A DNA stretch of 44,464 nt, from assembly GCA_031258415.1 (NCBI GenBank), contig JAIRMW010000136.1, forward strand, positions 1-44,464, written 5' to 3'. Positions within the stretch are counted from its first letter, which is position 1, and every line of letters begins with the position of its first letter. Under the pieces are notes generated by a model. That model saw nothing but the letters and a program-made list of their open reading frames with translations. It did no database searches and had not been told where the DNA came from. The DNA is from Prevotellaceae bacterium. GTDB taxonomy: Bacteria > Bacteroidota > Bacteroidia > Bacteroidales > UBA932. Below, in pieces: positions 235 through 42,966 of the stretch. A program made the translations under genes and the position numbers.

Positions 235-300
235 CAAAAATAATGGATAATGGCGTTAAGCGCACCAAACGGCGCGTTGAAAAGCCTTCGCATGTCGCAG

Positions 301-357
301 TCGCGCATCGCATGTCGCAAAGTCGAGTATCGAACATCGAGTATCGCGCATCGCGCC
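301..357. repeat. Degenerate heptamer tract TCGNNNA (about 8 units); inverted-orientation relative of the GAYRCTC array
   Basis: tcgcgca tcgcatg tcgcaaag tcgagta tcgaaca tcgagta tcgcgca tcgcgcc. TCGAGTA is the reverse complement of TACTCGA, a rotation of GATACTC. Confidence 0.6.
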
Positions 358-362
358 GGGCT

Positions 363-1853
363 CTATCCGCAGTGGAAATAGCGTTTGATAAGCGCCTGCA
401 TCCGGTCGGGCTGCTCGGCTATCTCCTGCCGGAGCCGGCGGTCGTCGAACGCCCGCAGCCCGGCGACGATCCCGTCGATCATGCCCGGCGAGAACACGCG
501 GTGCTGCTCATAAACCTCCCGCTGACGTTCCAGCGCATCGGCCGATTCGGCGCACGAAGCGGGCAGGCGCTCGAACGGCATGGCGGCGCGACGGTCGCCG
601 GCGCCGGCGACGTCGGAACAGGTGCGATCGGCAACCTCCAGCGCGTTGTCCATCGTCAGTCCGTGGCGGGCGGCTACGGCCAGTCCGGCGAGCAGCCGGT
701 AAACGTCGGCCGACCCGTCGGAGCACCGAAACTCAACGGTCTGTTTCCGGGAGAAGTCGACGTCCTGCGGCGGCTCCAGCGGATTGACCCTCCTCGACAT
801 CCCGCCGCCCGCCGACCACCCCAAGGGGACGCGCACCAGCGCCGCCCGGTTGCGCTCGCCCCAGCAGATACCCGTAGGCGCTTCCTGATCGGGCACCAGC
901 CGGAAATAGGACGTCGGGTTGGTATTCCCGAAAGCCGTCAGCGAGGGCGCCAGCGACAGGTAGCCGGCGATAGCCCGTTTCGCGACAGCGCTCAACTGTC
1001 CGTTCTCAATCAGCGCATTTCGATCCTCCTTCAGCAGGCGCGTATGAATGTGCATACCGCTGCCGGCCTTGCCGGACGTAATCTTGGGCGCGAAGGTGAT
1101 CGGTAGCCCGTAGCGGCGTGCCATCGTGCGCATAATCCATTTGGCAATCACCAGCTGGTCGGCGGCGTCTTCGAGGCGGATGGGGAGAAACTCGATCTCA
1201 TGCTGTTCATACAGTTGGCCGTCGAGCGTAAAATGCCCCACTTCGGAATGCCCGTATTTCAGCTGGCCGCCGGCCTGCGCGATAGCCCGCATCGCGGCGG
1301 TACGGAAGGGCGCCCCCTTGCAGAACGGCTCCGACTCGTGGTAGCCGCGCTGGTCGGCGCCGGCAAACAGCTCGTCGACAGGGCTGATCGTATAGTATTC
1401 CAGCTCGCCCATCGCCTCGAAAGTCAGGCCTGTGGCGTCGGTCAGCGCCCGGTGCGCTTTATGCAGCAGGCGCTCGGGCGCATCGTCGTAGGGCGTGCCG
1501 TCCTTGTCGAAAAAGGCGCAGAGCAGGTCGATCGCAGGGACTTCGCTAAAAGGATTGAGGAACGCCGTCGCGAAACGCGGAATGACGTAGAGGTCGCTCG
1601 CCCCCGCCTGAATATGGGAAAACAGGCTGGAGCCGTCGACCCGCTCGCCGCTGCTAAGGATCGTATCTAAATACCGAAAATCGTTAATCACGAAATTAAG
1701 GGTCTTCAACCGCCCGTCGCTGCCGGCGTAGCGGAAGTTGACCATCCGTACGCCGTTGTTTTCAATAAATTTCAGAATATCGGCTTTGGTAAAGTCGCCG
1801 GACGGCTTTTGTAAATATTGTACTAATGGATTTGCATTCAGTTTTGTAGTCAT
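363..1853 (-). CDS. glnA: Glutamine synthetase (about 500-aa GlnA type)
   Basis: 496-aa ORF with GS signatures KYGHSEVG and GSGMHIHT. The opposite-strand ORF 21..1106 is a high-GC shadow. Confidence 0.9.
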   Translation of the reverse strand: MTTKLNANPLVQYLQKPSGDFTKADILKFIENNGVRMVNFRYAGSDGRLKTLNFVINDFRYLDTILSSGERVDGSSLFSHIQAGASDLYVIPRFATAFLNPFSEVPAIDLLCAFFDKDGTPYDDAPERLLHKAHRALTDATGLTFEAMGELEYYTISPVDELFAGADQRGYHESEPFCKGAPFRTAAMRAIAQAGGQLKYGHSEVGHFTLDGQLYEQHEIEFLPIRLEDAADQLVIAKWIMRTMARRYGLPITFAPKITSGKAGSGMHIHTRLLKEDRNALIENGQLSAVAKRAIAGYLSLAPSLTAFGNTNPTSYFRLVPDQEAPTGICWGERNRAALVRVPLGWSAGGGMSRRVNPLEPPQDVDFSRKQTVEFRCSDGSADVYRLLAGLAVAARHGLTMDNALEVADRTCSDVAGAGDRRAAMPFERLPASCAESADALERQREVYEQHRVFSPGMIDGIVAGLRAFDDRRLRQEIAEQPDRMQALIKRYFHCG

Positions 1854-1873
1854 CGTATAAAAATTTTATATAA

Positions 1874-1881
1874 CAAATATA
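1874..1881 (-). promoter_or_regulatory. -7 promoter box (TATATTTG on minus strand) for glnA
   Basis: Plus strand reads caaatata, 21 nt upstream of the glnA ATG at 1853. Confidence 0.45.
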
Positions 1882-1919
1882 CATAATTTAAATGAATAAT
1901 GTGCGATGTGCGACTTTGC

Positions 1920-2143: not shown

Positions 2144-2178
2144 GTCGAAAATCGAAAATCGAGTATCGAAAATCAATT
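2144..2178. repeat. Short heptamer tract (G/A)TCGAAA / ATCGAGT, 5 units
   Basis: gtcgaaa atcgaaa atcgagt atcgaaa atcaatt. ATCGAGT is complementary to units of the 1920-2129 array. Confidence 0.7.
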
Positions 2179-4339: not shown

Positions 4340-4345
4340 AGTGCG

Positions 4346-7034: not shown

Positions 7035-7807
7035 TGCGCCCGATCCCTCTCGAATAACGTCGTCGACGCCTGCGCCGCAGGCACTATTAACACATCGGCA
7101 ATATTGACGTGCGGCGGACAGCCGATCATATAGGCGATGAGGTCGGCCACGTCGGCGGCGTGCAACGGTTCAAAGCCGCTATACACCGCATTGGCGCGTG
7201 GCCGGTCGCCTTTGAAGCGCACGATTGAAAATTCGGTCTCTACCGCGCCCGGCGCTACCTGCGATACGCGAATGCCGAAGGGCAGCAATTCCATCCGCAA
7301 GCCCTTAGTGAGTGCATCAACGGCCTGCTTGGTGGCGCAATATACGTTGCCGTTGGGATACACCTCGCGGCCGGCAATAGAGCCTATATTAATAATGTGT
7401 CCCGTTCGCCGGGCGATCATGCGGGGCGCCACGAGGCGCGTCATATAAAGCATCCCTTTGAGGTTGGTGTCGATCATCCGTTCCCAATCGTCTAACAGGC
7501 CGTCGTGCACAGGCCTGAGTTCGACGGCTAAGCCGGCATTGTTCACTAACACGTCGATAGCCTGCCAGCGTTCGGGCAGGCGGCCGATATGGGCTTCGAC
7601 CTGCTGCGGATCGCGCACGTCGAAACATAACGGCAAGGTCGCCACGCCGCAGTCGGTCGATAATTGCTCCGCCAGCGCCGTCAGGCGGTCGTGGCGGCGA
7701 CCGGTCATAATTAAATCATAGCGGTCGGCCGCTAATCGCCGCGCCACAGCCTCGCCAATGCCCGACGTGGCGCCGGTAATGCAGACTGTTTTGTTCTCGC
7801 TTGACAT
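7031..7807 (-). CDS. SDR-family NADP-dependent oxidoreductase (YdfG-like)
   Basis: TGATSGIG cofactor motif, NNAG, and catalytic YCATK. Confidence 0.85.
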   Translation of the reverse strand: MSSENKTVCITGATSGIGEAVARRLAADRYDLIMTGRRHDRLTALAEQLSTDCGVATLPLCFDVRDPQQVEAHIGRLPERWQAIDVLVNNAGLAVELRPVHDGLLDDWERMIDTNLKGMLYMTRLVAPRMIARRTGHIINIGSIAGREVYPNGNVYCATKQAVDALTKGLRMELLPFGIRVSQVAPGAVETEFSIVRFKGDRPRANAVYSGFEPLHAADVADLIAYMIGCPPHVNIADVLIVPAAQASTTLFERDRAH

Positions 7808-9400: not shown

Positions 9401-11590
9401 ATGGTAGAACGAAATGAACAATGGTTATTGGATGCGTGCGCTCATTTTGCGGCGCAGGAGCGGGCGCTGATAAGCCGCGCCTGCGGAGAAGCGGCCGCTG
9501 CGCTGGAAGGCGAACGGCGCGAAAACGGCGATCCCCTCCTGTATCACGCCCTGACGGTCGCACGGATGACGGTCGAGGACGTCGGACTGATGGCCGCATC
9601 GGTGGTGGCGGTGCTGCTGCACGAGGCGACGAGGCTCGAGGAAAAAAAAGGAAGCGGAAAAACGCCGAAAGAAATCGCCGCGCTGCAAAAAAGCAGGGAA
9701 GCTGGAATGCGTAAAACGTACGGCGACGAAACGACCGACATCGTCATCGGGCTAAACCGCATTGCGGCCATCGACATCAAGCAGACCAGCCTACAGGCCG
9801 ACAATTTCCGCAAGCTCATCGTCTCCTATTCGACCGATCCGCGCGTGGCGATCATCAAGCTCATCGACCGGCTGGAGGTGATGCGCTCGCTCGATTTTTT
9901 TCCCAAATCGAAACAGCATAAGAAGGCGACCGAGACCCTGCTGCTCTACGCGCCGCTGGCACACCAGTTGGGGCTCTACAATATCAAGTCGGAGATGGAA
10001 GACCGGTCGCTGAAATTCACCGAACCCGAAGCCTACCGGCATATTACGAATAAACTGAAAAGCACGTCGGGCGAGCGCGAGAAGTTTTTGCAGGAAATCA
10101 TCCGCCCTATTGAACTCGCGCTGCAACAGGAAGGAATGCGCTATGAAATCAAAAGCCGGACAAAGTCCGTATATTCCATCTGGAAAAAAATGCAAGTGCA
10201 GAAAATTGATTTTGAAAAAGTCTACGACGTGTTCGCCAGCCGGATCATCATCCACACGCCGCCCCACAGGGAGACGGAAGACGCCGCCTGCTGGAAGGTC
10301 TATTCGCTGGTCGAGAAATATTACGACACCGACATAAGCCGGCTCCGCGACTGGATCAGTAAGCCTAAAAGCAGCGGCTACCGGTCGTTGCATACGACCG
10401 TCAAAACCCGCGACGGCCATGCGCTGGAAGTGCAAATCCGCACCACCTCTATGGACGAGGCCGCCGAGCGCGGCGTGGCGGCGCACTGGAAATATAAGGG
10501 CGTGCAGGATTTGGGGAGCATGCAGACATGGCTCGATCAGGTTCGCCGGCTGCTCGAGGCGCCCGGCGAAGCCGATGAGCAAGCCCTTACTACTATTACG
10601 CTGAATGAAATAATCGTGCTCACGCCTGCCGGCGATTTACGCCGTTTGCCGACAGGCGCTACCGTTCTGGATTTTGCGTTCGACCTGCATACCAATCTGG
10701 GGCTGCACACCGCCGGCGCCAAAGTCAACGGGCGGATGGCGTCCATCAAGGAAGTCCTCCATACCGGCGATATGGTCGAAATCGCCACCGCCAAAAACCA
10801 GCAGCCCACGAGCGACTGGCTCAACCACGTGGTAACGTCGAAAGCGCGGGCTAAGATCAAACAGCGGCTGCGCGAAGAAGAGACCAAACGGGCGCGGGAA
10901 GGCCGCGAACTGCTCGAACGCCGGTTGAAAAACTGGAAGCTCGTCCTCTCCGACGAGGCGCTGAACAAACTGCTGAAGCATTATAAATTGAAAACGATCA
11001 CCGAGCTGTATGCCGGGCTGGCCGGCGCCAAGATCGATATTGCACAGGTGAAGGAAATCATCACGGCGGCGCCGGCCGGCGAGCCGCAGCCCGACCGGAC
11101 TGTGGCCGCAGCCCTCGACGAACGCCCGGCGGCCGACGGCGACTACCTCATTATCGACGAAAAACTGCACAGCGCCGACTATAAACTCGCCAAATGCTGT
11201 AATCCGATCTATGGCGACGACGTCTTCGGGTTCGTTACCGTCGCCGACGGAATTAAAATCCACCGCCACTCGTGCCCCAATGCGGCGCGGCTGCTGGAAA
11301 AGTATCCCTATCGCGTGCTCCGGGCCAAATGGCGGGCGGCGACGCTGGCGACCAACTTTCCGGTCAACCTGCGCATCAGCGGCGACGCCGAACCCGGGCT
11401 TATACCCACCATCACCGAGACCATCACCCGGCTCCACTGCGTCCTGCGATCCGTCAATCTGGCCGACAACGGCAGCGGCGCGTTCAGCGGGCAGGTGCAG
11501 GTGATGGTCAGGGACAACAAGCAACTCGATATGCTCATTCACCACTTGAAGCAATTGCGGGGCGTCGACAGGGTCGGGCGGATCCATTGA
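9401..11590 (+). CDS. relA: RelA/SpoT-family bifunctional (p)ppGpp synthetase/hydrolase
   Basis: 729 aa. N-terminal HD-type region, synthetase block GYRSLHTTV, TGS-like VLTPAGDLRRLPTGATVLDFAF, and an ACT-like C-terminus. Confidence 0.9.
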   Translation: MVERNEQWLLDACAHFAAQERALISRACGEAAAALEGERRENGDPLLYHALTVARMTVEDVGLMAASVVAVLLHEATRLEEKKGSGKTPKEIAALQKSREAGMRKTYGDETTDIVIGLNRIAAIDIKQTSLQADNFRKLIVSYSTDPRVAIIKLIDRLEVMRSLDFFPKSKQHKKATETLLLYAPLAHQLGLYNIKSEMEDRSLKFTEPEAYRHITNKLKSTSGEREKFLQEIIRPIELALQQEGMRYEIKSRTKSVYSIWKKMQVQKIDFEKVYDVFASRIIIHTPPHRETEDAACWKVYSLVEKYYDTDISRLRDWISKPKSSGYRSLHTTVKTRDGHALEVQIRTTSMDEAAERGVAAHWKYKGVQDLGSMQTWLDQVRRLLEAPGEADEQALTTITLNEIIVLTPAGDLRRLPTGATVLDFAFDLHTNLGLHTAGAKVNGRMASIKEVLHTGDMVEIATAKNQQPTSDWLNHVVTSKARAKIKQRLREEETKRAREGRELLERRLKNWKLVLSDEALNKLLKHYKLKTITELYAGLAGAKIDIAQVKEIITAAPAGEPQPDRTVAAALDERPAADGDYLIIDEKLHSADYKLAKCCNPIYGDDVFGFVTVADGIKIHRHSCPNAARLLEKYPYRVLRAKWRAATLATNFPVNLRISGDAEPGLIPTITETITRLHCVLRSVNLADNGSGAFSGQVQVMVRDNKQLDMLIHHLKQLRGVDRVGRIH

Positions 11591-12679: not shown

Positions 12680-13996
12680 TTAATAAAAAATCCATTTCCA
12701 CAGTTCTTTGAACCCGGGCTTTTTGCCATACATCAGCACCCCGACGCGATAAATCTTGCCCGCGATCCACGCGATCCCCACGAACGTAACCAGCAGCAGC
12801 GACAGCGACAGCGCGACCTCCCGGAACGGTACGCCGAACGGGATGCGGGCCATCATCACCATCGGCGACGTAAACGGGATCATCGAACACCAGAACGACA
12901 GCGGGCTGTTGGGATATTGGAACGTATGGATCATAATCAGCAGCCCGATGATGAGCGGGATCGTAATCGGAACCACTAATTGCTGCGTATCGGTTTCGCT
13001 TTCGACCGCCGACCCGATCGCCGCAAACAGCGACGCATATAGAAAATACCCGAACAGAAAATAACAGATAAACGCCCCGATGATCGCCGCGAAATTCACG
13101 CTCTCGAGCATCGCCCGGAGGTCGGGCGACGCCCCGAGACCTGCCGTCGACGCCCCGGCCACGTCGCCCGGCACCCCGGCCACCCCCGCCGCCGACACCG
13201 CCTCCGGCACGAGGAACCCCTGCATCACCGCGAGGTAGAGCGCCGCCGTCAGCACGACCCAGATACAGAACTGTAGCAGCCCGACGGAGGCGATCCCGAC
13301 GATTTTACCCACCATCAACTGGAATGGCTTAATCGACGACAGGATGATCTCGACAATCCGGCTGGTCTTCTCCTCGATCACGCCCCGCATCACCAAGCTG
13401 CCGAACATCGTGATAAACATATAAATCATCAAACTGAACACATAGGCCACCCCCATATACAGCAGCGTAAAACTCGCTTTCTCCTGCCCCTCGTCGTCCC
13501 AAAGATACGTCTGGACGCTCAGCGGCGTTTTGATAGACGCCAGAATTGCCTCGAGCCCCGGAATAGCATACGACGCTAATTTACGGGCTTCGACCGCCTG
13601 CTCCATCCGGCTCCGAATCCGGTTTTGCACGTCGAGGTTAGTCTGACGGAACGAATACACCCCGATAGCCGGCGGGCGCTCCTCGTCGAGCCGTCCGATA
13701 TCGACGATCGCATACCAGCCCTGCGCCCGAAAAACGCCCTTCAGCGAATCGAGCGACGCCCCGGGGAAGAACACGAACGTCAGCTCGTCGCTATCCGTCA
13801 GCGCCTGAGCCGCCAGCCCCGACCGGTCGATCACCGCCAGCGTCTTTGCCTCGACGTCTTTGAGCGACTGTATCAGAAACGGCACCACCATCAGCGCCGC
13901 CATCAGCACGGGTACCAGAATCGTAGTCAGAATAAACGATTTTTTCCTCACCCGTATGGAAAATTCGCGTTCGATAATTAAAAAAATCTTTTTCAT
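12680..13996 (-). CDS. ABC-2 family transporter permease (NatB-like), no adjacent ATPase
   Basis: Start is at MKKIFLIIEREFSIRVRKKSF (ATG 13996, preceded by a -7 box). One N-terminal TM helix, a large loop, then five or six C-terminal TM helices. The ORF-track extension to 14392 reads through the promoter region. Confidence 0.7.
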   Translation of the reverse strand: MKKIFLIIEREFSIRVRKKSFILTTILVPVLMAALMVVPFLIQSLKDVEAKTLAVIDRSGLAAQALTDSDELTFVFFPGASLDSLKGVFRAQGWYAIVDIGRLDEERPPAIGVYSFRQTNLDVQNRIRSRMEQAVEARKLASYAIPGLEAILASIKTPLSVQTYLWDDEGQEKASFTLLYMGVAYVFSLMIYMFITMFGSLVMRGVIEEKTSRIVEIILSSIKPFQLMVGKIVGIASVGLLQFCIWVVLTAALYLAVMQGFLVPEAVSAAGVAGVPGDVAGASTAGLGASPDLRAMLESVNFAAIIGAFICYFLFGYFLYASLFAAIGSAVESETDTQQLVVPITIPLIIGLLIMIHTFQYPNSPLSFWCSMIPFTSPMVMMARIPFGVPFREVALSLSLLLVTFVGIAWIAGKIYRVGVLMYGKKPGFKELWKWIFY

Positions 13997-14027: not shown

Positions 14028-14126
14028 CATTTATTAATGACACCGGCAAAATTGCCCCTCCGCGTGTCGCCCGTGCGCATTTCCCCTCCGGGAATGTAAA
14101 TGCCCTTTTCGAAAATGCCGATTTTC

Positions 14127-14211
14127 TCGCTCCGAGCGAGCTCGACCTCGCTCGGAGTGACAAAATTGTCGCTCGGAGCGACAAAAATCCTCGCTCGGAG
14201 CGACAAAATGG
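14127..14211. repeat. 4 tandem units of about 21 bp carrying TCGCTC-N-GAGCGA palindrome
   Basis: tcgctccgagcgagctcgacc / tcgctcggagtgacaaaattg / tcgctcggagcgacaaaaatcc / tcgctcggagcgacaaaatgg. The array sits between divergent promoters. Confidence 0.85.
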
Positions 14212-23392: not shown

Positions 23393-23434
23393 GCGTCCTT
23401 GATGGCCGCCGGCGGAAGGACGACGCCTTTTTTT
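23393..23434 (+). terminator. Rho-independent-type terminator on plus strand with no upstream annotated CDS
   Basis: CGTCCTT gatggccgccggcgg AAGGACG acgcc TTTTTTT. It lies just upstream of the cmk promoter box. Confidence 0.5.
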
Positions 23435-23466
23435 AATCCGTCGGTGCGGGACTGAAAAAAATCCTT

Positions 23467-23474
23467 TACCTTTG
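23467..23474 (+). promoter_or_regulatory. -7 promoter box TACCTTTG for cmk-ispH
   Basis: cctttacctttgcagggaaATG. Confidence 0.5.
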
Positions 23475-23481
23475 CAGGGAA

Positions 23482-24186
23482 ATGAACAGAACCATGCAGG
23501 ATAAAATTATTATTGCCATCGACGGACATTCGTCTACCGGAAAAAGCAGCTTCGCTAAAGCTATCGCCGCCCGTATGGGCTACCTGTACGTGGATACCGG
23601 CGCGATGTACCGGGCGGTTACGCTGTACGCCCTGCGCCACGGGCTGATCACCCGGCAGGGCGAGGTGGAGGAAGACGCGCTGGCCGCCGCGTTGCCCGCT
23701 ATTGATATTCGCTTCGTCAACGACGCCGACGGCCAACGGGCTACGTATCTGAACGGCGAGGATGTAGAACATGAAATCCGCGGTATCCGCGTTTCCGGTC
23801 ATGTGAGCCGTATCAGCGCCATCGCCGCCGTGCGCGAGCGTCTGGTGTATTTGCAGCAGCAAATGGGGCGTCGCAAGGGACTCGTGATGGACGGGCGCGA
23901 CATCGGGACGGTGGTTTTTCCTCAGGCTGAAATGAAAATCTTTATGACCGCCGACGCGCAGGTACGTGCGGAACGCCGATACCGGGAAATGAAAGAGAAG
24001 GGTCGCACCGTAACGTTCGACGACGTGCTGGCCAACGTCAGGCAACGCGATTACGAGGACGAGCACCGGCTCGTTACCCCCCTGCGCCGCGCCCCCGATG
24101 CGCTCCTGCTGGACAACAGCCGCCTCTCGCCGGAAGAGCAAATGGAATGGTTCTTCAATCAGTTAAAAAGACTAAACGAGGCGTAA
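23482..24186 (+). CDS. cmk: (d)CMP kinase
   Basis: P-loop IAIDGHSSTGKSS and YVDTGAMYRA. The start could instead be the ATG at 23494 (MQDK...). Confidence 0.9.
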   Translation: MNRTMQDKIIIAIDGHSSTGKSSFAKAIAARMGYLYVDTGAMYRAVTLYALRHGLITRQGEVEEDALAAALPAIDIRFVNDADGQRATYLNGEDVEHEIRGIRVSGHVSRISAIAAVRERLVYLQQQMGRRKGLVMDGRDIGTVVFPQAEMKIFMTADAQVRAERRYREMKEKGRTVTFDDVLANVRQRDYEDEHRLVTPLRRAPDALLLDNSRLSPEEQMEWFFNQLKRLNEA

Positions 24187-25414: not shown

Positions 25415-25456
25415 AAATGTGGACGTACACAAATTAAAATGTGGACGTACACAAAT
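25415..25456. promoter_or_regulatory. Two identical 20-bp direct repeats containing LacI-type operator-like half-palindrome TGTGGACGTACACA
   Basis: AAATGTGGACGTACACAAAT at 25415-25434 and at 25437-25456, a 22-bp period. The TGT..CG..ACA architecture is typical of LacI-family operators. A TTTCTTTG box-like element lies just upstream at 25400-25407. Confidence 0.5.
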
Positions 25457-28455: not shown

Positions 28456-28541
<86 letters not shown>

Positions 28542-32140: not shown

Positions 32141-34252
32141 ATGAAAAAATTCTTTTATACTTTCTGTTGCACCCTGATGTTGACATCGCTTTCGTGCGAC
32201 GCTTATTTAGACGTAGCTTCTCCTTCCAATGTCGACGAGGACTTCGTATTCTCCACCCCGGACGAAGCCTACAAAGTACTGATGAGTTGTTACGAATTGT
32301 TCCGCAGTCCGGGAAACGACTACGGTTCCAATACCGTCCATTCCAACGGGCTGTTTTATGAAGTGATTATCGGCGGGTCGGATTCCGAGACCCACCCCGA
32401 AGCCTACAGCGCCCAACAGAGGCACATTCCCGAAGGGCTGTATGCCGAAGAAATTACCATCGACTATTCTGCGTTTATTTCCGGATGGGGGGCGCTCTAT
32501 ATGCTGGCTAACCGGCTGGCGATAGTCATCAGCCAGATTGAAACCAAAGACGCTTTCAAGACGGCATGGGACAACCAGCAGCCTTCGGAGTGGACGCAGA
32601 TGTACGGCGAGGCCGTAACCCTGCGGGCGATTTGCTACCACGAACTGATCCGGTTCTACGGCGATGTGCCTTACTTCGACGGACCCATTTATACACAGAA
32701 TCAGACCGACGGCGTTACCCTGATTTCCCGCTGGGCTATCTACGACAAGCTGATTGCCTCGGTACAGCGAGTCGAGCCGTTTATGTTCCGGCTGGGCGAA
32801 GGAGGCATTGGCGGCGAGCGGATTTCGCGCACCTTTGCCCAGGCCATGATCGGGCGGATAGCTCTCTACGCGGCCGGCTATCACCTCTGCCGGCTCGATA
32901 TCGACCACGGCGTAGCCCTCGAACGGCATCCGACGATCAACGGGACGAAATGGAACGCCATCTACGCCCGCCATCCTCAATACCGGCAGTATTATGAAAC
33001 AGCCCGGCAGTACCTCGAAGCCTGTATTGCCGCTCCCGGATCGGCGCGGCTGATTACCACCGACGACCGCGCCCATACCAGCAACCCCTTTCAGCGGCAT
33101 TTCCAGTACTCGCTCGACTTGCAGGTCAGCCCCGAAACGCTGTTTGAGGTAGCCGAGACGCAGGGCATCCAGTGCGAACGTCCGTATGCGTTTGGCCGTC
33201 CGTCGAATGGCGGCAACGCCAATGCCTCGCCCTGCAATGCCTACGGGCAAAGCCGGATGCACCCCAGCGTCTACTACGGCGATTTTGCGAACGACGATAT
33301 GCGGCGCGACGTGAGTATTACGGTTACTTCGAGCACCGGCGCGGCGAAGGAACAAATTCAGGAATTTGGGCCGGGCGCCCGCAAATTGGGCGGATTGGTG
33401 AACAACAAATGGGACGAAAACCGCATGAACCCGCCCTACAAAGCCTCGCGGCGGCAGTCCGGCGTGAACGCTCCCTACATGCGCATGGCCGACGCCATCC
33501 TGATGCTGGCGGAAGCCTACGCCGAATTAGGCTCCGAAGGCCCGGCTCGCGCCGAATGGCTCAAAGTGCGCAACCGCGCTTTCCGTACCGACCAGAGCAG
33601 CTATGTCAATGGCTTCTCCGGCGACGCCCTGAAGGAAGCGATTGCGCAGGAGCGAAAACTCGAGTTTGTTGGCGAAGGCCTGCGACGCTACGACCTCATC
33701 CGCACCGGCAAACTGCCCGAAAAGATCATCGCCCTCCGGCAAACGCAGCAGGCGATGGTCGACGCCCTCCGTACGCAGGAGTACTACGCATTCCCGAATG
33801 GAAATGTGATCCCTGCGTATATCTGGACAAAGGCGGTGAATACGGCCGATCTCGGAATGAGCACCATGCTCACCTACGAGTGCGACGTGCCGCCGACCGA
33901 CCCCGCCTATCCCGTAAAATTTCCCGGATGGAGGGGGCAGTACGACGGCTATGGCGCCGGGCTGGATAATACGAACGGCAACCGGAGCATCGCCATACAG
34001 GGGCTGTTCCGCTTTATCGCCGAAGGAAGCGCCGAAGCGAATGCGCTGATTGCGCAGGGCTATGCAAAAACCCCATGGGGCAGTACGATTGTAACGAATG
34101 AAGCCCACTATACGACCGACCTTTTCCGGGGCTATACGCAGGCCGACCTTGCCGCCGGCAATCCGCCGCGCTACCTGTTGCCGCTCTCGAGCGAAACCAT
34201 TGCAAAGTCGAAAGGGCTTATTTCAAACGGCTACGGATTTGCGCAACAATAG
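32141..34252 (+). CDS. SusD/RagB-family nutrient-binding outer-membrane lipoprotein (large, 703 aa)
   Basis: Lipobox LTSLSC. It starts 20 nt after the SusC stop, the canonical susCD pairing. Confidence 0.88.
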   Translation: MKKFFYTFCCTLMLTSLSCDAYLDVASPSNVDEDFVFSTPDEAYKVLMSCYELFRSPGNDYGSNTVHSNGLFYEVIIGGSDSETHPEAYSAQQRHIPEGLYAEEITIDYSAFISGWGALYMLANRLAIVISQIETKDAFKTAWDNQQPSEWTQMYGEAVTLRAICYHELIRFYGDVPYFDGPIYTQNQTDGVTLISRWAIYDKLIASVQRVEPFMFRLGEGGIGGERISRTFAQAMIGRIALYAAGYHLCRLDIDHGVALERHPTINGTKWNAIYARHPQYRQYYETARQYLEACIAAPGSARLITTDDRAHTSNPFQRHFQYSLDLQVSPETLFEVAETQGIQCERPYAFGRPSNGGNANASPCNAYGQSRMHPSVYYGDFANDDMRRDVSITVTSSTGAAKEQIQEFGPGARKLGGLVNNKWDENRMNPPYKASRRQSGVNAPYMRMADAILMLAEAYAELGSEGPARAEWLKVRNRAFRTDQSSYVNGFSGDALKEAIAQERKLEFVGEGLRRYDLIRTGKLPEKIIALRQTQQAMVDALRTQEYYAFPNGNVIPAYIWTKAVNTADLGMSTMLTYECDVPPTDPAYPVKFPGWRGQYDGYGAGLDNTNGNRSIAIQGLFRFIAEGSAEANALIAQGYAKTPWGSTIVTNEAHYTTDLFRGYTQADLAAGNPPRYLLPLSSETIAKSKGLISNGYGFAQQ

Positions 34253-34288
34253 ACGCTTCGACGCTCGACGCTCGACTTTCCGATACTC
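34252..34288. repeat. Short GAYRCTC-family heptamer tract directly after SusD stop
   Basis: gacgcttc gacgctc gacgctc gactttc cgatactc. Same unit and orientation as 1920-2129. Confidence 0.7.
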
Positions 34289-34313
34289 CCCGCCCCGCCG
34301 CAGGGGTGGGGAG
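34286..34313 (+). terminator. GC-rich 11-bp stem hairpin (one G.U) after SusD
   Basis: CTCCCCGCCCC gccgca GGGGTGGGGAG. There is no T-tract, so it may be an attenuator or processing structure rather than a full terminator. Confidence 0.4.
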
Positions 34314-34412
34314 CCCGGAAGGGGGCGCAAAAAGCAGAAATAAAATAAACGAATGACGAAAAGGCGATCGAGCGAACGACCGTATAAACACGATGACAAT
34401 ATGCTACACCGC

Positions 34413-36995
34413 ATGACACAGACCCTAAAAACACGCCTGCCGGCGCTTATCTTCCTGCTGGCGGCGATCGGTTTTGCCGACGTCGTCGGCCGGGACGCCG
34501 TCGGCTACCGGACGCTCGACCCGAGCTGCCCGGTAGAGTGGGAGGGCGACCGGATCGTCTTTCAGGGACGCAGGATCGACCTCTCGCCCCATGCCTTTTT
34601 CGTCGACGGGCGCCTGACGACCGACGAAATAGCCGATCGCCCCTTTGTCTTCAATTCCCTGAACGACGCCCTCGCCCAAGTCGTCGACGGATCGACCGAC
34701 CAGCCGATGACGGTCTATATCGCCCCGTACGTCTACTGGATCGACGACCCCGACGACCCGGCTGTCCGCATCGCCGCCGACGGGCAGGACGCGCCCGTCG
34801 GCTTGACGGTGCGCTGCAACCACCTTACCCTCTACGGGCTTACCGACAACCCGCAGCATGTCGTCCTCGCCTGCAACCGGGGGCAAACATTGGGGGCGCA
34901 AGGCAATTTTACCATGTTCTCGTTCATCGGCGACGACCTGCGGGTCGAAAACCTGACGATGGGCAACTATTGCAACGTCGATTTGGAATATCCCCTGCAA
35001 CCGTCGCTGAGCCGTGCCAAACGATCGCCTACCATCGTACAGGCGCAGCTTGCCTTCTGCCGCGGCGACCGGATTCTCGCTCGCCGGGTGCATTTTATCA
35101 GCCGTCTGAACACCAAGCCCCTGTTAGGCGGCAAAAGGACGCTGTTCGACCGCTGTCATATCGAATGTACCGACGACGCCCTGTGCCCTACCGGCGTATA
35201 CCTGCACAGCTCGTTTACCTTTTTCAGTTCAAAACCCTTTGCCCGAACGGCCGGCACCGGCGCCCTGTTTCTGGACTGCGATTTCGATGTGCGAACGCGC
35301 CACAGGCAGTACCTCGTTAAGGGCGAAGGACGGGTGACGCTGGTCGATGCCCGCTTTCATCATCCGTCCGATTCGCTGTGGATCGGCTGGACGCAAGACC
35401 CGCCCGACGACCTGCGAAACTATCAGTACAACGTAACCCTCAACGGCCAACCGGTAGCGATCAACCGCGACAAACCCGCCCTCGCCGTCGATATGACCGA
35501 CAAACCCCTGCTGGCGGCCTACCGCTTCGAAGACGGGGGCGACGTAGTCTATAACACCTACAACCTGCTCCGCGGCGACGACGAATGGGATCCAATGGGC
35601 GTCAAGACGCGCGTCGAGGCGGCAGAGCGGCGCGCCGGCGTCCGGCTAACGGCGATTCCCGTATCCCTGCAACTGTCGCCGACGCGGGCGTTCGTCGAGG
35701 CGGGCGCCATAGACCTTACGCTCGACGCCGCCTCGTTCCGTTTCGGTAACTACCGCACCGCCTCCGCGCCCTTGACATGGCGGGTATCGCAGGGCGACAC
35801 GTCGCTGGTGGCGCTACAGGCCGACGGCGAGCAGTGCCGGGTTTTGAGCCTGAACGGGCGCGAGGAACCGGAGAACGTAGTGATTACCGTCGCCGACCCG
35901 TCGGGACTGGAAGCGGCGGCGGTGATAGCCGTCGCGCCGGCGCGGTTGCCGCCGCCCGTCTTTACCGCCCCGCCGGCCATCGTCGCCGGAAAAGGATCGC
36001 TGCGGGTCGCTTATACGCTGGCGCTGGACGGACGCCGCGACGAGTCGCTCATTACATGGTACCGTTGCCGCGAGGCCTCCGGCGCCGACGCCATCCCCGT
36101 AGCCGTAACGCGGCGGGGGCGACCGGAATACGTCTATGAACTCTCGCAGGCCGACGCCGGCTATTACATCATGGCCACCGTAGCGCCCAAGCACCTCCGT
36201 TCCCCGTCAGGGAAAATAGAAAAAGCCATCACCGAGGCGCCCATCGTCCCCGAACAAACCGTCTGGCGCAACCTGTATACGGATTTCCATAGCTTTCCGG
36301 TTGACTTCCAGCCTGAAAAACGCCCCGGCTTCTGGACCGTCGACGCCTATAAACCGCTTGAACTCGACGACGAAAACTGGACGCCCGTACCCGAAAACGC
36401 ATGGGAATACGGCCCCGAACTGAACGGCGCCAAAGGCATGGGGCTGGTGCAAACCGGACGGGGCGCGCGCCTGCTATACACCCCCGTCGAACGACCCTAT
36501 GGCGATATGAGCCTCTCCCTACAGGTCGACCCCTGCAAGCAGGCCGGGCAGGGCTTCTCGATCGCCGGAAAGGGGCAGTATATGGACATTTACATCAAAT
36601 TCGACCCCCTCACCCTGACGGGATATGCCCTGCGCATTATCCGCACCCTCAAATTCGACCGGGCGGTAGACTTTTACTTAGTGAAATATGAAAACGGACG
36701 GACGACGCCTCTCTGCGAGCCGGTATCGACCACCTGCTACCGCACCGGATGCACAATCACCCTGCGGATAGAAGGGGATCGCTTCACGGCGCATGCCGAA
36801 AGTCCGACCATCCCGGACGGCGACCCGATCCCCGGCCTTGTGCCGGTCGTCGACCTCTATGCCCTCATTACGCCCAATCCCTTTGGCGGTACGGGCATCC
36901 AGTATGCCGCCTCCGCGCGGGGAACCTCGAATACCTTTGAGTCGGGAAGCGCCATGCTCCACCGCCTCGACGTGCGTTGGAGCAGTGAACAATGA
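34413..36995 (+). CDS. Secreted right-handed beta-helix protein, pectinesterase (CE8)-like / pectin-lyase-fold N-domain plus C-terminal beta-rich domains
   Basis: Signal peptide MTQTLKTRLPALIFLLAAIGFA. Alternative starts are 34353 and 34401. The segment TIVQAQLAFCRGDRILARRVHF resembles the CE8 QAVAL..GDR..F..C block, and repeated hydrophobic beta-helix turns are present. This is inference only. Confidence 0.5.
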   Translation: MTQTLKTRLPALIFLLAAIGFADVVGRDAVGYRTLDPSCPVEWEGDRIVFQGRRIDLSPHAFFVDGRLTTDEIADRPFVFNSLNDALAQVVDGSTDQPMTVYIAPYVYWIDDPDDPAVRIAADGQDAPVGLTVRCNHLTLYGLTDNPQHVVLACNRGQTLGAQGNFTMFSFIGDDLRVENLTMGNYCNVDLEYPLQPSLSRAKRSPTIVQAQLAFCRGDRILARRVHFISRLNTKPLLGGKRTLFDRCHIECTDDALCPTGVYLHSSFTFFSSKPFARTAGTGALFLDCDFDVRTRHRQYLVKGEGRVTLVDARFHHPSDSLWIGWTQDPPDDLRNYQYNVTLNGQPVAINRDKPALAVDMTDKPLLAAYRFEDGGDVVYNTYNLLRGDDEWDPMGVKTRVEAAERRAGVRLTAIPVSLQLSPTRAFVEAGAIDLTLDAASFRFGNYRTASAPLTWRVSQGDTSLVALQADGEQCRVLSLNGREEPENVVITVADPSGLEAAAVIAVAPARLPPPVFTAPPAIVAGKGSLRVAYTLALDGRRDESLITWYRCREASGADAIPVAVTRRGRPEYVYELSQADAGYYIMATVAPKHLRSPSGKIEKAITEAPIVPEQTVWRNLYTDFHSFPVDFQPEKRPGFWTVDAYKPLELDDENWTPVPENAWEYGPELNGAKGMGLVQTGRGARLLYTPVERPYGDMSLSLQVDPCKQAGQGFSIAGKGQYMDIYIKFDPLTLTGYALRIIRTLKFDRAVDFYLVKYENGRTTPLCEPVSTTCYRTGCTITLRIEGDRFTAHAESPTIPDGDPIPGLVPVVDLYALITPNPFGGTGIQYAASARGTSNTFESGSAMLHRLDVRWSSEQ

Positions 36996-37089
36996 ATAAT
37001 GTAGTTAATGGAGTTAGAGTAGTTAATGGAGTTAATGAATAATGAACAACGAACAACGAACAATGAATACGACGAATAATGAATACAAT
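36988..37089. repeat. Composite 7/9-bp tandem array (AAYAAYG heptamers + KAGTTARWG nonamers) beginning in last codons of upstream CDS
   Basis: aacaatg aataatg tagttaatg gagttagag tagttaatg gagttaatg aataatg aacaacg aacaacg aacaatg aatacgacg aataatg aatacaat. The CDS stop TGA (36993-36995) lies inside the array. Confidence 0.85.
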
Positions 37090-37099
37090 AAATACGTAA

Positions 37100-37138
37100 C
37101 CACTTCACGTAAATACGCGCCGGCGTTACGTGAAGTGG
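37100..37138. other. Long hairpin: perfect 13-bp stem CCACTTCACGTAA / TTACGTGAAGTGG
   Basis: The 13-nt loop contains a further CGC/GCG 3-bp stem. The hairpin sits between the 7/9-mer array and the 21-mer array. Confidence 0.8.
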
Positions 37139-37284
37139 CTACGCATTCGCGCGAATTAGCCACGCATTCGCGCGAATTTGCTCCGCATTCGCGCGAATTT
37201 GCTCCGTATTCGCGCGAATTTGCCACGCATTCGCGCGAATTTGCCACGCATTCGCGCGAATTTGCCGCGCATTCGCGCGAAGCC
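37138..37284. repeat. 7 x 21-bp perfectly phased tandem repeat, each unit with 12-bp palindrome ATTCGCGCGAAT
   Basis: gctacgcattcgcgcgaatta / gccacgcattcgcgcgaattt / gctccgcattcgcgcgaattt / gctccgtattcgcgcgaattt / gccacgcattcgcgcgaattt (x2) / gccgcgcattcgcgcgaagcc. Total 147 bp. Confidence 0.95.
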
Positions 37285-37364
37285 AAACAAAAAAGACGCG
37301 CCGCCCGTACGGCGGCCGCCATATTCAATACCTACTTATTCGATAACATCAAAACGAAATCAAA

Positions 37365-38018
37365 ATGTCAGGACGCGCTACATTAAACAGGTCTAACGCC
37401 TCATTTATCGCGCTGGCCGAGGCCCTCCATTCGCAATCGCATCTTCATGCAGACGACTGGAGACTCGACGCCGCGCAACTCGCTACCTTCGACGCCCTGC
37501 TCGACGTCGCCAAAACAGCCTACGACGCCAATAGCAACCGGAGTACGAAAAACGCCGTTTCGACCGCCAACAAAAACGCGGCGTTCGGCGACCTGCGAGC
37601 CTTTCTGAGTCTGTATATCAACACCCTCGTAGGCAACAGCCGCGTGCCCGACGAAGCCCTCAACTACATGGGGCTACGCTCGAGGCATTCGCGCCGGTAC
37701 GCCCCGCTGCCGAGACCCACCGACCCCATCGTCCTCTCCGTCAAGCGGCGGCACGACGAAATGACCGTCCACGCCTCCCGCCCCGAGCATGGACACCCCA
37801 CCGACGGCGTCGGCGTAAAAAAACACTACGGATTTATGCTCCGCTACCGAATCGAAGGCGCCGAACGCGAGGAAATCCTCATCTCTACCCGACTCCGGCA
37901 CACCCTGTTCTTCGACCGCGCCGACGAAGGGAAAAAAATTACCCTCGCCGCCGCATGGGTCAATCCTCGCCTCGAAACAGGCCCTTGGAGCGAAGACATC
38001 AACGAAATCATCGGGTAA
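37365..38018 (+). CDS. Hypothetical cytoplasmic protein (no signal peptide): helical N-half, beta-rich FN3/Ig-like C-half
   Basis: 217-aa ORF, 27 nt upstream of the next CDS, which implies an operon. The C-terminal ...ITLAAAWVNPRLETGPWSEDINEII resembles the last strands of FN3-type domains. I recognise no family. Confidence 0.6.
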   Translation: MSGRATLNRSNASFIALAEALHSQSHLHADDWRLDAAQLATFDALLDVAKTAYDANSNRSTKNAVSTANKNAAFGDLRAFLSLYINTLVGNSRVPDEALNYMGLRSRHSRRYAPLPRPTDPIVLSVKRRHDEMTVHASRPEHGHPTDGVGVKKHYGFMLRYRIEGAEREEILISTRLRHTLFFDRADEGKKITLAAAWVNPRLETGPWSEDINEIIG

Positions 38019-41210: not shown

Positions 41211-41259
41211 AACGGAAAAGGAACATAAGCAAACAACTACAGGATTAAAAAGACACCCC

Positions 41260-42882
41260 ATGAAGCATACACGGAAAAATAGTTGGCTAACGAGCGTTCT
41301 TATCCTCGCGATGATCGACGCCGGTTCCCTTTCGGGAATGCCCGATGCGCCGTCGCCGCCGGCAAAGGAACAGGTATTGACGGCAATGAAGCAGGCCTCT
41401 CGCTTTATGGTAGAGAAAGTCGGCTATCGGGGCGCCTATGTATGGGCATACCTCCCCGACCTCTCGCGTCGCTGGGGCGAACTCGAAGCCTATCCCACGA
41501 TGGGATGGGTACAAAACCCCGGCACGCCCTCGATGGGACATCTCTTTCTCGACGCCTACCATGCGACCGGCGATGAATACTACTACGACGCGGCCTGCGA
41601 GACGGCGAGGGCGTTAATTTGGGCGCAACTCCCCTGCGGAGGATGGAACTATATGTTCGATTACGCCGGCGAGCATTCGCTCAAACGCTGGTATGCGACC
41701 ATTGGAAAGCAGGCTTGGCGGATGGAAGAATTTCATCACTACTACGACAACGCCACCTTCGACGACGGAGGCACCGTGGCGGCGGCCGAATTGCTGCTCC
41801 GAATTTATGTGGAAAAAAACGACCCCGCCTTTCGCCCGCCCTTAGAAAAAACAATCCGCCTTATCGTAGAGAGCCAGTACCCTTCCGGCGGCTGGCCGCA
41901 ACGCTATCCGCCGCGCTACGACCCCACGACCCTCGGCAACCCCGACTATCCCTCCTGCATCACCTTAAACGACGACGTGAGCATGCGCAACATCGACTTC
42001 CTCCTGCAATGCTACCAGAGCTTGGGATGGAAAAACGTCCGCGAGCCGATTACCCGGGCGATGAATATCCTGATTGCCCTACAGCACGGAGCCCCCTGTG
42101 CCGGATGGGCCGATCAGTATACCGTCGACGAACTGAAGCCCGCCCCGGCGCGCTCCTACGAACCCTGCGCCATTAACACAGGCACGACGGTTGAAATGAT
42201 TTATTTGATGATGGAATACTACCGCCTCACCGGCGAAACCAAATTCCTGTCGGGGCTCCCGGCCGCGATCGACTTCCTCGCCTCCCTCCAATTGCCCGAC
42301 GACGAAGTGAAGCGTGCCGGGAAAACCCTCCGGCGCCCGGACGACATCCTCATTCCCCGCTACATCGACCCGAAAACAGGACTGCCGCAGTACATCCATC
42401 GAAAAGGGAGCAACGTCGCCAACGGATGCTATTATTTCGACCAAGACATCCGCCATACCGTATCGCACATAGGCTCGACCGCCGCCGTCAATATCGGAGA
42501 ACTGCGCCGCGCCCTCGCCGAATGCCGAAAAACGCCCAACGACTCGCTCCTGAAGCGCTCGCCCCTCTTCAACGGGCGCCCCCTTCGGAAATACTATTCA
42601 GCCCCCTTCCGCTCGACGACCGCCAACCTGCCGGACGCTGCGACAATCATCGACCGCCTCGACCCTGCCGGCTACTGGCCGACGCCGCTCCCGATGATCT
42701 CCGCGCCCTATAAAGCCTGTCCGCCGCTCCCGCCGAGCGAAGACGACACCTATGCGCAAACACGCGCCGGCGACGAGTACGACACCTCGACCCGTCCGCC
42801 CGAAACGCCCGTCGACGGCGTCCATACCGCCGTCTACATCGCCAATATGATGACCCTGATCCACTATTTGAATAATGAATAA
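41260..42882 (+). CDS. Putative polysaccharide lyase, PL10 / PelA-Pel15E (Pec_lyase) like alpha/alpha-toroid protein
   Basis: Signal peptide. The blocks NATFDDGGTVAAAELLLRIY, QYPSGGWPQRYP and ITLNDDVSMRNIDFLL resemble conserved PL10 pectate-lyase blocks, recalled from memory and not aligned. Confidence 0.55.
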   Translation: MKHTRKNSWLTSVLILAMIDAGSLSGMPDAPSPPAKEQVLTAMKQASRFMVEKVGYRGAYVWAYLPDLSRRWGELEAYPTMGWVQNPGTPSMGHLFLDAYHATGDEYYYDAACETARALIWAQLPCGGWNYMFDYAGEHSLKRWYATIGKQAWRMEEFHHYYDNATFDDGGTVAAAELLLRIYVEKNDPAFRPPLEKTIRLIVESQYPSGGWPQRYPPRYDPTTLGNPDYPSCITLNDDVSMRNIDFLLQCYQSLGWKNVREPITRAMNILIALQHGAPCAGWADQYTVDELKPAPARSYEPCAINTGTTVEMIYLMMEYYRLTGETKFLSGLPAAIDFLASLQLPDDEVKRAGKTLRRPDDILIPRYIDPKTGLPQYIHRKGSNVANGCYYFDQDIRHTVSHIGSTAAVNIGELRRALAECRKTPNDSLLKRSPLFNGRPLRKYYSAPFRSTTANLPDAATIIDRLDPAGYWPTPLPMISAPYKACPPLPPSEDDTYAQTRAGDEYDTSTRPPETPVDGVHTAVYIANMMTLIHYLNNE

Positions 42883-42966
42883 TGAAGAATGTAGTTAGAG
42901 TAGTTAGAGTAGTTAATGTAGTTAGAGTAGTTAATGTAGTTAATGAATAATGACCAATGAATAATA
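42871..42966. repeat. Composite 7/9-bp tandem array (AATAATG + TAGTTARWG x6), same family as 36988-37089, starting in last codons of upstream CDS
   Basis: aataatg aataatg aagaatg tagttagag tagttagag tagttaatg tagttagag tagttaatg tagttaatg aataatg accaatg aataata. The CDS stop TAA (42880-42882) lies inside the array. Confidence 0.9.

Follow-up and report, generated by a model that had tools for sequence, protein, structure and literature searches.

The 44,464-nucleotide stretch considered here (positions 1 to 44,464, the full length, of metagenome contig JAIRMW010000136.1), termed the window in what follows, derives from an uncultured, high-GC member of the Bacteroidales, relatives of which are labelled as Prevotellaceae metagenome-assembled genomes (MAGs). 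The subject is the tandem arrays of short DNA units found between its genes. As mapped from Pfam domains and codon-position GC, those genes include, on the minus strand, glnA, a PEGA-domain gene and an LPP20 gene; a block of core genes (yceG, relA/spoT, aroB, aroD, aroE, truA and others); and, on the plus strand, a pectin-type polysaccharide utilisation locus (LacI-family regulator, altronate dehydratase, SusC, SusD, PemB-family protein, DUF6298, pectate lyase and a second SusC). The closest homologues of the PEGA and PemB-family proteins are from JGI and termite-gut Bacteroidia, some of these also labelled Prevotellaceae MAGs. Domains of the window's open reading frames (ORFs) include no cas, no rep or par, and no transposase gene. 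Within the window a transfer RNA scan found nothing and Rfam gave no match, whether at gathering score or at E <= 0.1, nor did Rfam match any of 12 related loci.

Arrays were detected using Tandem Repeats Finder (TRF), and the main ones are all intergenic. They cover 18.0% of intergenic DNA at a TRF score of at least 50 and 23.1% at a score of at least 30, versus 0.48% and 1.6%, respectively, of coding DNA. True intergenic coverage should be slightly higher, as the intergenic total takes in about 205 nt at the left end which probably belong to a cut gene. Intergenic TRF rows with scores of at least 50 number 14, versus a mean of 0.06 and a maximum of 1 over 200 dinucleotide-preserving shuffles. 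These are, that is, head-to-tail short units far in excess of what composition would supply, as is characteristic of long simple sequence repeats (LSSRs) and of variable-number tandem repeats (VNTRs). A preliminary description of this DNA had noted at least nine such intergenic arrays, and TRF recovers all of them to within a few bases, along with one, at 25415-25456, which had not been listed. Three kinds are present, i.e., heptamers, 9-mers, and 21-22-bp units possessing a palindromic core, plus one (AC) tract. Probably these are several kinds of hypervariable simple repeat or minisatellite, made in place by slippage and filling the spacer that extends from a stop codon to the next promoter. 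What had been taken to be one organised system is instead, in other words, several different things.

The heptamers belong to two groups. The first is a superfamily having a TCGA or TCGC core plus three variable bases, as seen at 288-357, 1919-2131, 2145-2174 (inverted) and 34252-34288, and the second is an A/T-rich family, AATGAAT/NAAYGAA, as seen at 1891-1901, 36986-37094 and 42866-42966. TCGA heptamers are present in both orientations relative to transcription and, among the window's TCGnnnn arrays, the variants found in adjoining modules are mutationally related. The inverted pair of TCGA arrays at 1919-2131 and 2145-2174 folds as a periodic hairpin (z = -3.9). The 9-mers, AATGKAGTT/AGAGTAGTT, are found at 36996-37035 and 42888-42945, in both cases between AATGAAT-type heptamers, and the resulting heptamer/9-mer/heptamer arrangements are described here as ‘composites’.

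The longer units are instead palindromic. Their cores have been confirmed as ATTCGCGCGAAT, AATGACACGTGTCATT, TCGCTCGGAGCGA and, the last as read directly, ATTCCTTTGAAGGAAT, and within these 44 kb no palindrome is found outside of its own array, in keeping with the distinct palindrome per array that had been described. Viewed as RNA, the palindromic arrays fold far better than do shuffles, with z ranging from -4 to -8.9, and no T-runs follow the array hairpins on the transcribed strand. Units of both 7 and 21 bp are indeed found, as was also claimed, but two of the presumed ‘21-mers’ have a period of 22 and relatives display periods of 22 to 24. The further idea that 21 represents three heptamers as well as two helical turns is approximate only, since the palindromic units span 21-24 bp and are not built of heptamers. 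Likewise, the module order thought to be shared by the islands at 1891-2270 and 36988-37284 was over-read: AATAATG in the first island amounts to 1.5 copies within a conserved region upstream of the glnA promoter, and the two islands face opposite ways relative to transcription, leaving the resemblance weak. On the minus strand that promoter-upstream region reads as CATTATTCATT, which directly precedes the glnA -7 box, TATATTTG, at 1881.

Considering arrays found downstream of genes, in the window and in relatives, the gap to the stop codon is 6 nt or less in 9 of 12 cases, and the placement at stop codons that had been described thus stands. Within the window the gap is 5 nt for glnA and 0 nt for SusD, with the stop codons of the PemB-family and pectate lyase genes found inside of arrays, and with PEGA (36 nt) as the exception. 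In the relatives, which are introduced below, gaps are 0-6 nt for yceG and 0 nt for relA in L125 (lysyl-PG synthase, at 134 nt, being an exception), 2 and 3 nt in L246, 2 nt in L251, and, again exceptionally, 44 nt for the PEGA gene of L121. At their far side arrays stop short of promoters or hairpins, with the glnA -7 box found just beyond the PEGA-glnA island. Where a -7 box can be recognised, arrays are located upstream of, rather than in, the -33/-7 region and also outside of ORFs, which is not the placement of a phase-variable contingency locus.

The relatives used for comparison are L121 (86.6% amino acid identity for PEGA), L246 (72%, GC 0.60) and L125 (55%), all of them high-GC and all as array-dense as the window. 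Between the window and L121, identity at 4-fold sites is 0.80 for PEGA and 0.87 for glnA, and the PEGA-glnA island keeps its position (PEGA stop codon to glnA promoter), its flanks and its module order. The L121 version of the 21-mer, ATTCCTTTGAAGGAATCGGYA, nevertheless is present in at least 17 copies, there broken by a run of N, versus 4 in the window, and the heptamer block consists of about 18 units of GTCGCAG/GTCGAGC/GTCGAAA versus 30 units of GTCGAGC/ATCGAGC/ATCGAGT. Copy number and unit composition thus evolve much faster than do point substitutions, with copy number outpacing change in flanking sequence as it does for VNTRs. That the unit consensuses of the window and L121 match at 20 of 21 positions is the neutral expectation and is no evidence of constraint. 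The L121 heptamer arrays display, in addition, a 21-nt period as a higher-order structure.

With L125 the arrays (45 bp per kb) are found in other spacers. Islands fill its yceG-relA and relA-lysyl-PG-synthase spacers, which in the window are 36 and 30 bp long, and one island consists of four different heptamer arrays in series and then two arrays of 21-mers (9 and 15 copies). Neighbouring modules grade into one another by single changes (ATTCCGC, ATTCCGA, ATTACGG, CTTACGC, AATTACG, TCTTACG). In L246 a stop codon is followed immediately by 24-mers and palindromic 23-mers (GGTCACCAGTGACC), and that of the orthologous PemB gene, likewise immediately, by a leader of AATGAAT type. Among lower-GC relatives such arrays are few in L251 and are missing from L247 (22 kb), L249 and L250. 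Arrays, that is, are inherited at orthologous sites over short distances and are gained or lost in different spacers over longer ones; they diversify in place and are common to the lineage. Of the various origins offered in the preliminary description, a footprint of slippage is the one that best fits these comparative data, i.e., the L121 copy numbers, the gains and losses, and the derivative modules.

The arrays themselves are real. The same strain has been assembled independently in Logan (L001), where the 288-357 array is identical, and this strain was the only one returned by exact-protein look-ups for other strains. L001 itself ends within the 30-copy array and, as a consequence, the copy numbers of long arrays may be lower bounds. 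More generally, short-read assemblies break at arrays, as seen with breaks in L001 and L122 and with the run of N in L121.

Similar arrays are found well beyond these relatives. Using one genome per species, TCGAYRC in three or more units is present in at least 119 stretches, the matches listed including Planctomycetota, Verrucomicrobiota, Actinomycetota, Acidobacteriota, Pseudomonadota, Bacteroidota and others. The TCGAYRC loci listed contain 94 further heptamer arrays of diverse units, many of the matches listed possess an inverted partner array or a multi-module island, and 8 kb of a Paludibacter MAG includes 14 arrays. TCGAYRC arrays of L035, L010, L029 and L023 (Saprospiraceae, Phycisphaerae, the acidobacteriotal ‘Sulfomarinibacteraceae’, and Paludibacter) often have an inverted partner about 40 nt off, or instead form multi-module islands, an architecture like that of the window at 1919-2174. 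The TCGAYRC and 9-mer motifs are present also in IMG/VR contigs (22 and 17 stretches), and in two of these, IMGVR_UViG_3300042988_000801 (L278/L288) and IMGVR_UViG_3300042940_001854 (L280/L290), TCGAYRC arrays are at or near both contig ends. Such terminal arrays on viral contigs could pass for direct terminal repeats in calls of genome completeness.

The 9-mer family, AGTTARWGK in 2.5 or so copies (x2.5), is found in metagenomes at no fewer than 120 loci, mostly gut (human, rumen, rhinoceros), where it forms palindromic elements of about 180 bp having arms of 9-mers. Among the matches listed from gut contigs, the 9-mer strand lacking C is the sense strand of the upstream gene in 29 cases versus 8 (p = 7.5e-4). 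A strand bias of heptamer arrays was likewise strong at first, but mostly vanished once arrays that supply stop codons were excluded, and was rejected as an effect of ascertainment. In the flanks of the gut contigs (791 kb found more than 300 bp from the seeded arrays) there are 4.0 arrays per 10 kb, with periods of 7 the commonest (50 arrays), then 14 (35), then 12, 9, 11, 22 and 21. The preference for 7-nt units is general across phyla.

The 9-mer element is present also, at 98-99% identity and in several places, in Segatella copri DSM 18205. There it consists of arms, (AGTTAAAGG)n / (CCTTTAACT)n, inverted outer ends, TTCAAGTTTCGCAAGCTCAGA / ACTGAACTTTCGCATATCAGGA, and AAGAC-N4-GTCTT hairpins, and, between convergent genes, it spans exactly the distance from one stop codon to the other. 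No Rfam match to this ~180-bp element, nor any published description of it, was found. In the same S. copri locus (L291), (GAATGTT)5.6 at 9427-9465 occupies the whole of a spacer, from the TAG of a ‘smalltalk protein’ gene to 7 nt short of the following ATG, and a palindromic 22-mer with core CTATAGTTGTACGACTATAG is repeated five times within another spacer, at 7447-7557. The window's classes of arrays, given these heptamers and palindromic 22-mers, therefore exist in a species that can be cultured. S. copri and many gut Bacteroidales contigs possess, in sum, stop-abutting heptamers, AGTTARWGK 9-mers and 21-24-bp units with palindromic cores.

How such arrays might come about can be described as follows. 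Replication slippage, along with unequal recombination acting on short units, would both create arrays and turn them over in place, with 7 nt the preferred unit, as is seen here and as is known from the literature on prokaryotic LSSRs. New modules may then bud from mutated units at array edges, giving rise to the runs of related heptamer arrays that are observed. What is amplified presumably would be features already present in spacers, the seeds including TCGA heptamers, as well as the A/T-rich motif of stop/start junctions, TAATGAATAATG, from which AATGAAT-type heptamers could derive, and terminator-like or operator-like palindromes, from which the 21-24-bp units could derive. As arrays expand, adjoining dispensable DNA would be lost until the array spans from the stop codon to a promoter or hairpin, with the stop codon itself sometimes supplied by the array. 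Abutment of stop codons would follow, as arrays would grow until meeting a boundary that is under selection.

Cyanobacterial short tandemly repeated repetitive (STRR) heptamers are an example of prokaryotic LSSRs. The window is best read as a very repeat-rich case of this already known LSSR or minisatellite phenomenon, with STRRs and BrickBuilt (see below) as the nearest named relations, rather than as a new class of system. Shared with LSSRs are 7-nt units arranged head to tail, intergenic location, often at gene boundaries, different heptamer arrays side by side, array lengths that are lineage- or strain-specific, and the lack of a known function. The window differs in its motifs (TCGAYRC, AATGAAT and others), in the roughly 20% of spacer DNA that is involved, and in combining heptamers with 9-mers and palindromic 21-24-mers. 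Intergenic heptamer arrays of TAACTGA have been described from Beggiatoaceae, Cyanobacteria and five Bacteroidetes (MacGregor 2015, PMC4679880), with Gramella, Aequorivita and Paludibacter also having long arrays as well as neighbouring arrays of heptamers. The Beggiatoaceae arrays are found just upstream of start codons, whereas those of the window mostly begin at stop codons. Heptanucleotides, according to Mrazek 2007 as summarized in the same paper (PMC4679880), are the top class of 5-11-nt LSSRs in most genomes, with polymerase slippage proposed as their origin. Bacteroidota have, moreover, a high density of short tandem repeats (2025 survey, PMC12699852).

BrickBuilt, of Porphyromonas gingivalis, is a 23-nt minisatellite found inside of a MITE (a transposable element of the miniature inverted-repeat kind; PMC4596501), and Bacteroidota are rich in MITEs according to a survey of those elements. 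It resembles the window's long-unit arrays in belonging to the Bacteroidales, in being always intergenic, in its tandem units of about 22-23 nt without spacers, in its leader and tail flanks, and in its variable copy number; possible promoter effects are a feature of BrickBuilt as well. BrickBuilt, however, is one family with inverted-repeat ends and 19 copies per genome, whereas the window's 21-24-mer arrays each have their own unit, no terminal inverted repeats were found, and the only item that is repeated, twice, is the composite. Topical literature searches together with a search using the 9-mer sequence found no paper describing these arrays in Bacteroidales. The preliminary claim that no element class of Bacteroidota explains such arrays nevertheless does not hold up, given long simple repeats, BrickBuilt, and the same arrays in S. 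copri and gut contigs.

Other repeat classes are less similar. Pneumococcal BOX elements have the form boxA-(boxB)n-boxC, and the bacterial interspersed mosaic elements (BIMEs) of enterobacteria are mosaics of repeats. Both share with the window an ordering of modules, an internal one of which varies in copy number, as well as intergenic location and hairpin potential, but their modules are conserved families genome-wide whereas the window's are mostly locus-specific, with no single family of palindromes dispersed over loci. That the arrays are neither BIMEs nor the repetitive extragenic palindromes (REPs) related to them had been recognised from the start, as had their not being ends of insertion sequences. 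Nor are they CRISPR (short palindromic repeats that are clustered and regularly interspaced), which likewise has partly palindromic repeats of about 21-37 bp; here units are contiguous, unique spacers are absent, and no ORF has a cas domain.

A number of observations weigh against slippage as a complete explanation. One unit of the 14121-14209 array is inverted, which slippage cannot do, and slippage alone does not require the palindromic core that is found in almost every 21-24-bp unit. Abutment of stop codons is tighter than passive slippage obviously predicts, which could signify function or a targeted process. The two composites, furthermore, are C-poor on the sense strand (their leading 50-90 nt are C-free) and fold no better than shuffled sequence, and they are paralogous, having within 6 kb a common leader, AATGAATAATGT, and a common tail, ATAWATACG, next to unrelated genes. 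Such duplicates with common ends need dispersal or gene conversion, that is, something beyond local slippage. With the 9-mers of the gut loci listed, an inverted array is found 48-273 nt downstream in 34 of 120, and upstream in none, and orientation and architecture are biased by 29-36 versus 8-9. Two exceptions to pure slippage can be named as well. The AGTTARWGK 9-mers are members of a family of repeats found widely among gut Bacteroidales, and the 25415-25456 pair, judging from motif shape and position, is probably an ordinary duplicated LacI-type operator. What slippage does not explain keeps alive two ideas, one of RNA spacers and terminators and the other, as regards the 9-mer family, of mobile elements, and for the arrays some function at the level of RNA or DNA is conceivable.

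Table 1. Positions, TRF calls and predicted folding of arrays and hairpins (window coordinates unless otherwise indicated).
Feature	Position	TRF	Fold z	Remarks
About 10 TCGnnnn heptamers (TCGCATG, TCGAGTA, TCGAACA, TCGCGCA)	288-357	288-356		beside glnA stop codon (363-365, minus)
Leader AATGAATAATG, then (ATGTGCG)x2	1891-1913			conserved in L121
30 in-phase heptamers (GACGCTC, GATGCTC, GATACTC)	1919-2131	CGAYRCT, period 7, x30.4		no indels
TCGAAAA/TCGAGTA x4.3	2145-2174			inverted versus 30-copy array, across 13-nt GC-rich spacer
Four 21-mers, ATTCCTTTGAAGGAAT-type core	2176-2262	2205-2262, x2.8, imperfect		degenerate toward PEGA stop codon at 2306
Four 22-bp units, core TCGCTCGGAGCGA = TCGCTC(G/C)GAGCGA, plus A-tract	14121-14209	14146-14208, period 22, x2.9	-8.9	one inverted, three direct; flanked by divergent -7 boxes, 14027 (minus) and 14279 (plus)
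Three 21-mers, core AATGACACGTGTCATT	23045-23111	23049-23109, x2.9		spacer between sigma-54 response regulator gene (minus) and cmk (plus)
Two identical 22-mers, core TGTGGACGTACACA, with TGTGGA-CG-TACACA	25415-25456	22-mer, x1.9		~230 nt upstream of LacI-family gene and altronate dehydratase (uxaA-like) gene
Perfect (AC)41.5 microsatellite	28458-28540			between altronate dehydratase gene and SusC
About 5 GACGCTC-type heptamers	34252-34288	34252-34276, x3.4		first base is last base of SusD stop codon
GC-rich hairpin	~34285-34325			after post-SusD heptamers
Composite 1: AATGAAT-type heptamers, AATGKAGTT/AGAGTAGTT 9-mers, NAAYGAA heptamers	36986-37094 (+)	9-mers and 7-mers, 36997-37094	+1.9 (weaker than shuffles)	provides PemB-family stop codon (36993-36995); first ~50 nt lack C on sense strand
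Hairpin, 22-nt arms, 13-nt loop	37091-37147		-5.8	between heptamer and 21-mer blocks
21-mer x6.7, perfect palindrome ATTCGCGCGAAT	37141-37281		-4.0	no indels; ends ~80 nt upstream of next gene (37365)
Composite 2: TGAATAA x3, (TAGTTAGAG/TAGTTAATG)x6, AATGAAT x3	42866-42966 (+)	42869-42965	+0.8	provides pectate lyase stop codon (42880-42882)
S. copri palindromic ~180-bp element	L291 10001-10175 (NZ_CP085933.1 140676-140850)			also in L202, L205, L212, L223, L155

Of these two ideas, the one involving RNA would have arrays be cis-elements under selection, as parts of operon architecture. Arrays of A/U/G that are C-free and unstructured would then serve as intercistronic or 3' spacers which avoid Rho loading while keeping the next start codon accessible, and inverted arrays along with palindromic 21-24-mers would serve as terminators, insulators or RNA-stability hairpins. 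This is unlikely. Consistent with it are the stop-codon abutment of the window, L125, L246, L251 and S. copri, the composition and poor folding of both composites, the strong folding of the palindromic arrays, the retention of position and module order in the 87% relative, and the S. copri element's exact stop-to-stop fit between convergent genes. Unit sequences, though, differ at nearly all loci and even between close relatives, TCGA heptamers are indifferent to the direction of transcription, and other relatives do without arrays in the same spacers, while the hairpins have neither T-runs on the transcribed strand nor Rfam matches. Strand preference argues both ways: the C-free 9-mer strand of the listed gut matches usually is sense, but that bias stems in part from the fixed arm order of the palindromic elements, and its heptamer counterpart is gone when stop-supplying arrays are excluded. 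The second idea would make the composite, and perhaps further islands too, either copies or single arms of a non-autonomous mobile element, a MITE or BrickBuilt-like one which has a minisatellite inside of it and inserts by stop codons; this is unlikely. Terminal inverted repeats, an inverted partner array and a recognisable target-site duplication are all missing from the window copies, the window has no transposase gene, no 9-mer arrays were found in L121, L125 or L246, and the remaining arrays are locus-specific. Set against this are the existence of two paralogous composites 6 kb apart, the nine occurrences of AATGAATAATG at one mismatch or less versus 0.6 expected, the inverted-end elements of ~180 bp that the same 9-mer family makes, multi-copy in S. 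copri and common in gut metagenomes, and the precedent of BrickBuilt in Porphyromonas.

Arrays of heptads or iterons bound by ribbon-helix-helix proteins are known from the pSM19035 omega system, ParR centromeres and sopC. These consist, as in the window, of contiguous 7-bp units, direct and inverted, or of tandem palindromic units, but they adjoin par or rep genes and have one motif per system, neither of which holds in the window. With no rep or par domains present and every array having its own unit, the iteron or partition-centromere reading was rejected. The broader version, in which heptads would be binding platforms for an omega-like ribbon-helix-helix or a nucleoid protein and palindromic arrays would be phased operators, is quite improbable. 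It draws on cores spaced every two helical turns or so, between divergent promoters (14121-14209) or upstream of regulator genes (23045-23111 and 25415-25456), on the inverted 22-mer unit, on the operator-like shape of the 25415 pair, and on Bacteroides hybrid two-component system (HTCS) regulators, which bind tandem half-sites (PMC13292587). Yet close relatives differ in copy number (4 versus at least 17), periods range from 21 to 24, and there are no partition, replication or obvious partner genes nearby; with a separate sequence for each array, cognate proteins would have to number in the dozens. The earlier suggestion of regulatory binding sites probably holds for one array: 25415-25456 possesses, as would a LacI-family operator, a palindrome (about 14-16 bp) that is centred on CG and found upstream of a LacI-family regulon. 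As for 23045-23111 consisting of sigma-54 enhancer sites, that was rejected, with no TGGCAC-N5-TTGC promoter found nearby and a window-wide count of such promoters at chance. Very high array density, the exact, indel-free phasing of the largest arrays, and starts at stop codons might, lastly, be seen as the footprint of a dedicated, templated repeat-generating enzyme (a reverse transcriptase, primase-polymerase or telomerase-like activity), as was also raised previously. This is exceedingly improbable: nothing points to such an enzyme, neither the window nor related loci have a gene for one, units are diverse and locus-specific with graded mutational transitions between adjacent arrays, and the same array types span many phyla as well as viral contigs.

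In-place slippage, then, along with the two exceptions, is the preferred reading. A combination also can be envisaged, though it is improbable, in which the Bacteroidales, especially the Prevotellaceae, possess an as yet undescribed, functionally constrained class of intergenic arrays (unstructured, Rho-proof spacers of 7- and 9-nt units, C-free on the sense strand and beginning at stop codons, plus array-armed palindromes and palindromic 21-24-bp arrays as stop-to-stop terminators or insulators) that a lineage-specific, slippage-prone background of replication and repair supplies. Stop-codon abutment and palindromic 21-24-mer arrays recur in any case across Bacteroidales, including the culturable S. 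copri, and are both under-described and experimentally approachable. A clade with one fifth of its spacer DNA in tandem arrays is a natural experiment which, together with S. copri, could address why 7-nt units dominate prokaryotic LSSRs as well as whether arrays affect termination, polarity or promoter insulation. If arrays are purely neutral, then they serve mainly as a caution for annotation and as candidate markers for strain typing. Arrays do create spurious ORFs (1892-2263, 37042-37386, 23071-24141 and a 150-aa call in L125), and they shift stop codons as well. The third of these, a minus-strand call of 356 aa ending inside of the 23045-23111 array, was rejected as spurious based on codon-position GC, the real gene being cmk (23482-24186, plus strand).

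Several lesser features are found next to the arrays. The (AC)41.5 tract begins 142 nt past the altronate dehydratase gene and ends 227 nt ahead of SusC. A pure dinucleotide tract of such length is very unusual in bacteria and fits with a slippage-prone background, and the tract could affect spacing at the SusC promoter, wherever that may be. The 640-bp non-coding stretch at 22842-23481, which includes the 23045 array, also has (CGCCGCCACGTCC)x3.2 at 23316-23357, with no match to anything known. Directly after the 21-mer array that ends at 37281, and between two plus-strand genes, is the best terminator-like site of the 34-44 kb region, a GC hairpin followed by TCTTTTTTGTTT at 37294-37316 on the minus strand, which might stop antisense transcription. 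The GC-rich hairpin following the post-SusD heptamers resembles a REP-like double hairpin of L125, CCCCTCC-TTCG-GGAGGGG followed by TGCCCGCAGGGCGGGGTGG, that is dispersed in this relative only and found there four times in 22 kb, inside of array islands (13254-13279, 13327-13352, 16195-16220 and 16269-16294).

Over the window as a whole (1-44464), CTAG is nearly absent, with one occurrence versus 58 expected under a maximal-order Markov model; GGCC (ratio 0.57), CGCG (0.60) and AGCT (0.64) are also depleted, while TCGA, at 1.17, is not. TCGA heptamers as decoys for, or as avoidance of, restriction sites were rejected, as TCGA is not avoided outside of arrays (that same ratio of 1.17). At the window's left end (1-234), the contig end cuts a minus-strand gene, the start of which probably is near 205. 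This gene has a -7 box, TACCTTTG, at 234 to 227, ahead of which is CATTATCCATTATT, two heptamers akin to those of the AATGAAT family, in an arrangement like that of the glnA promoter.

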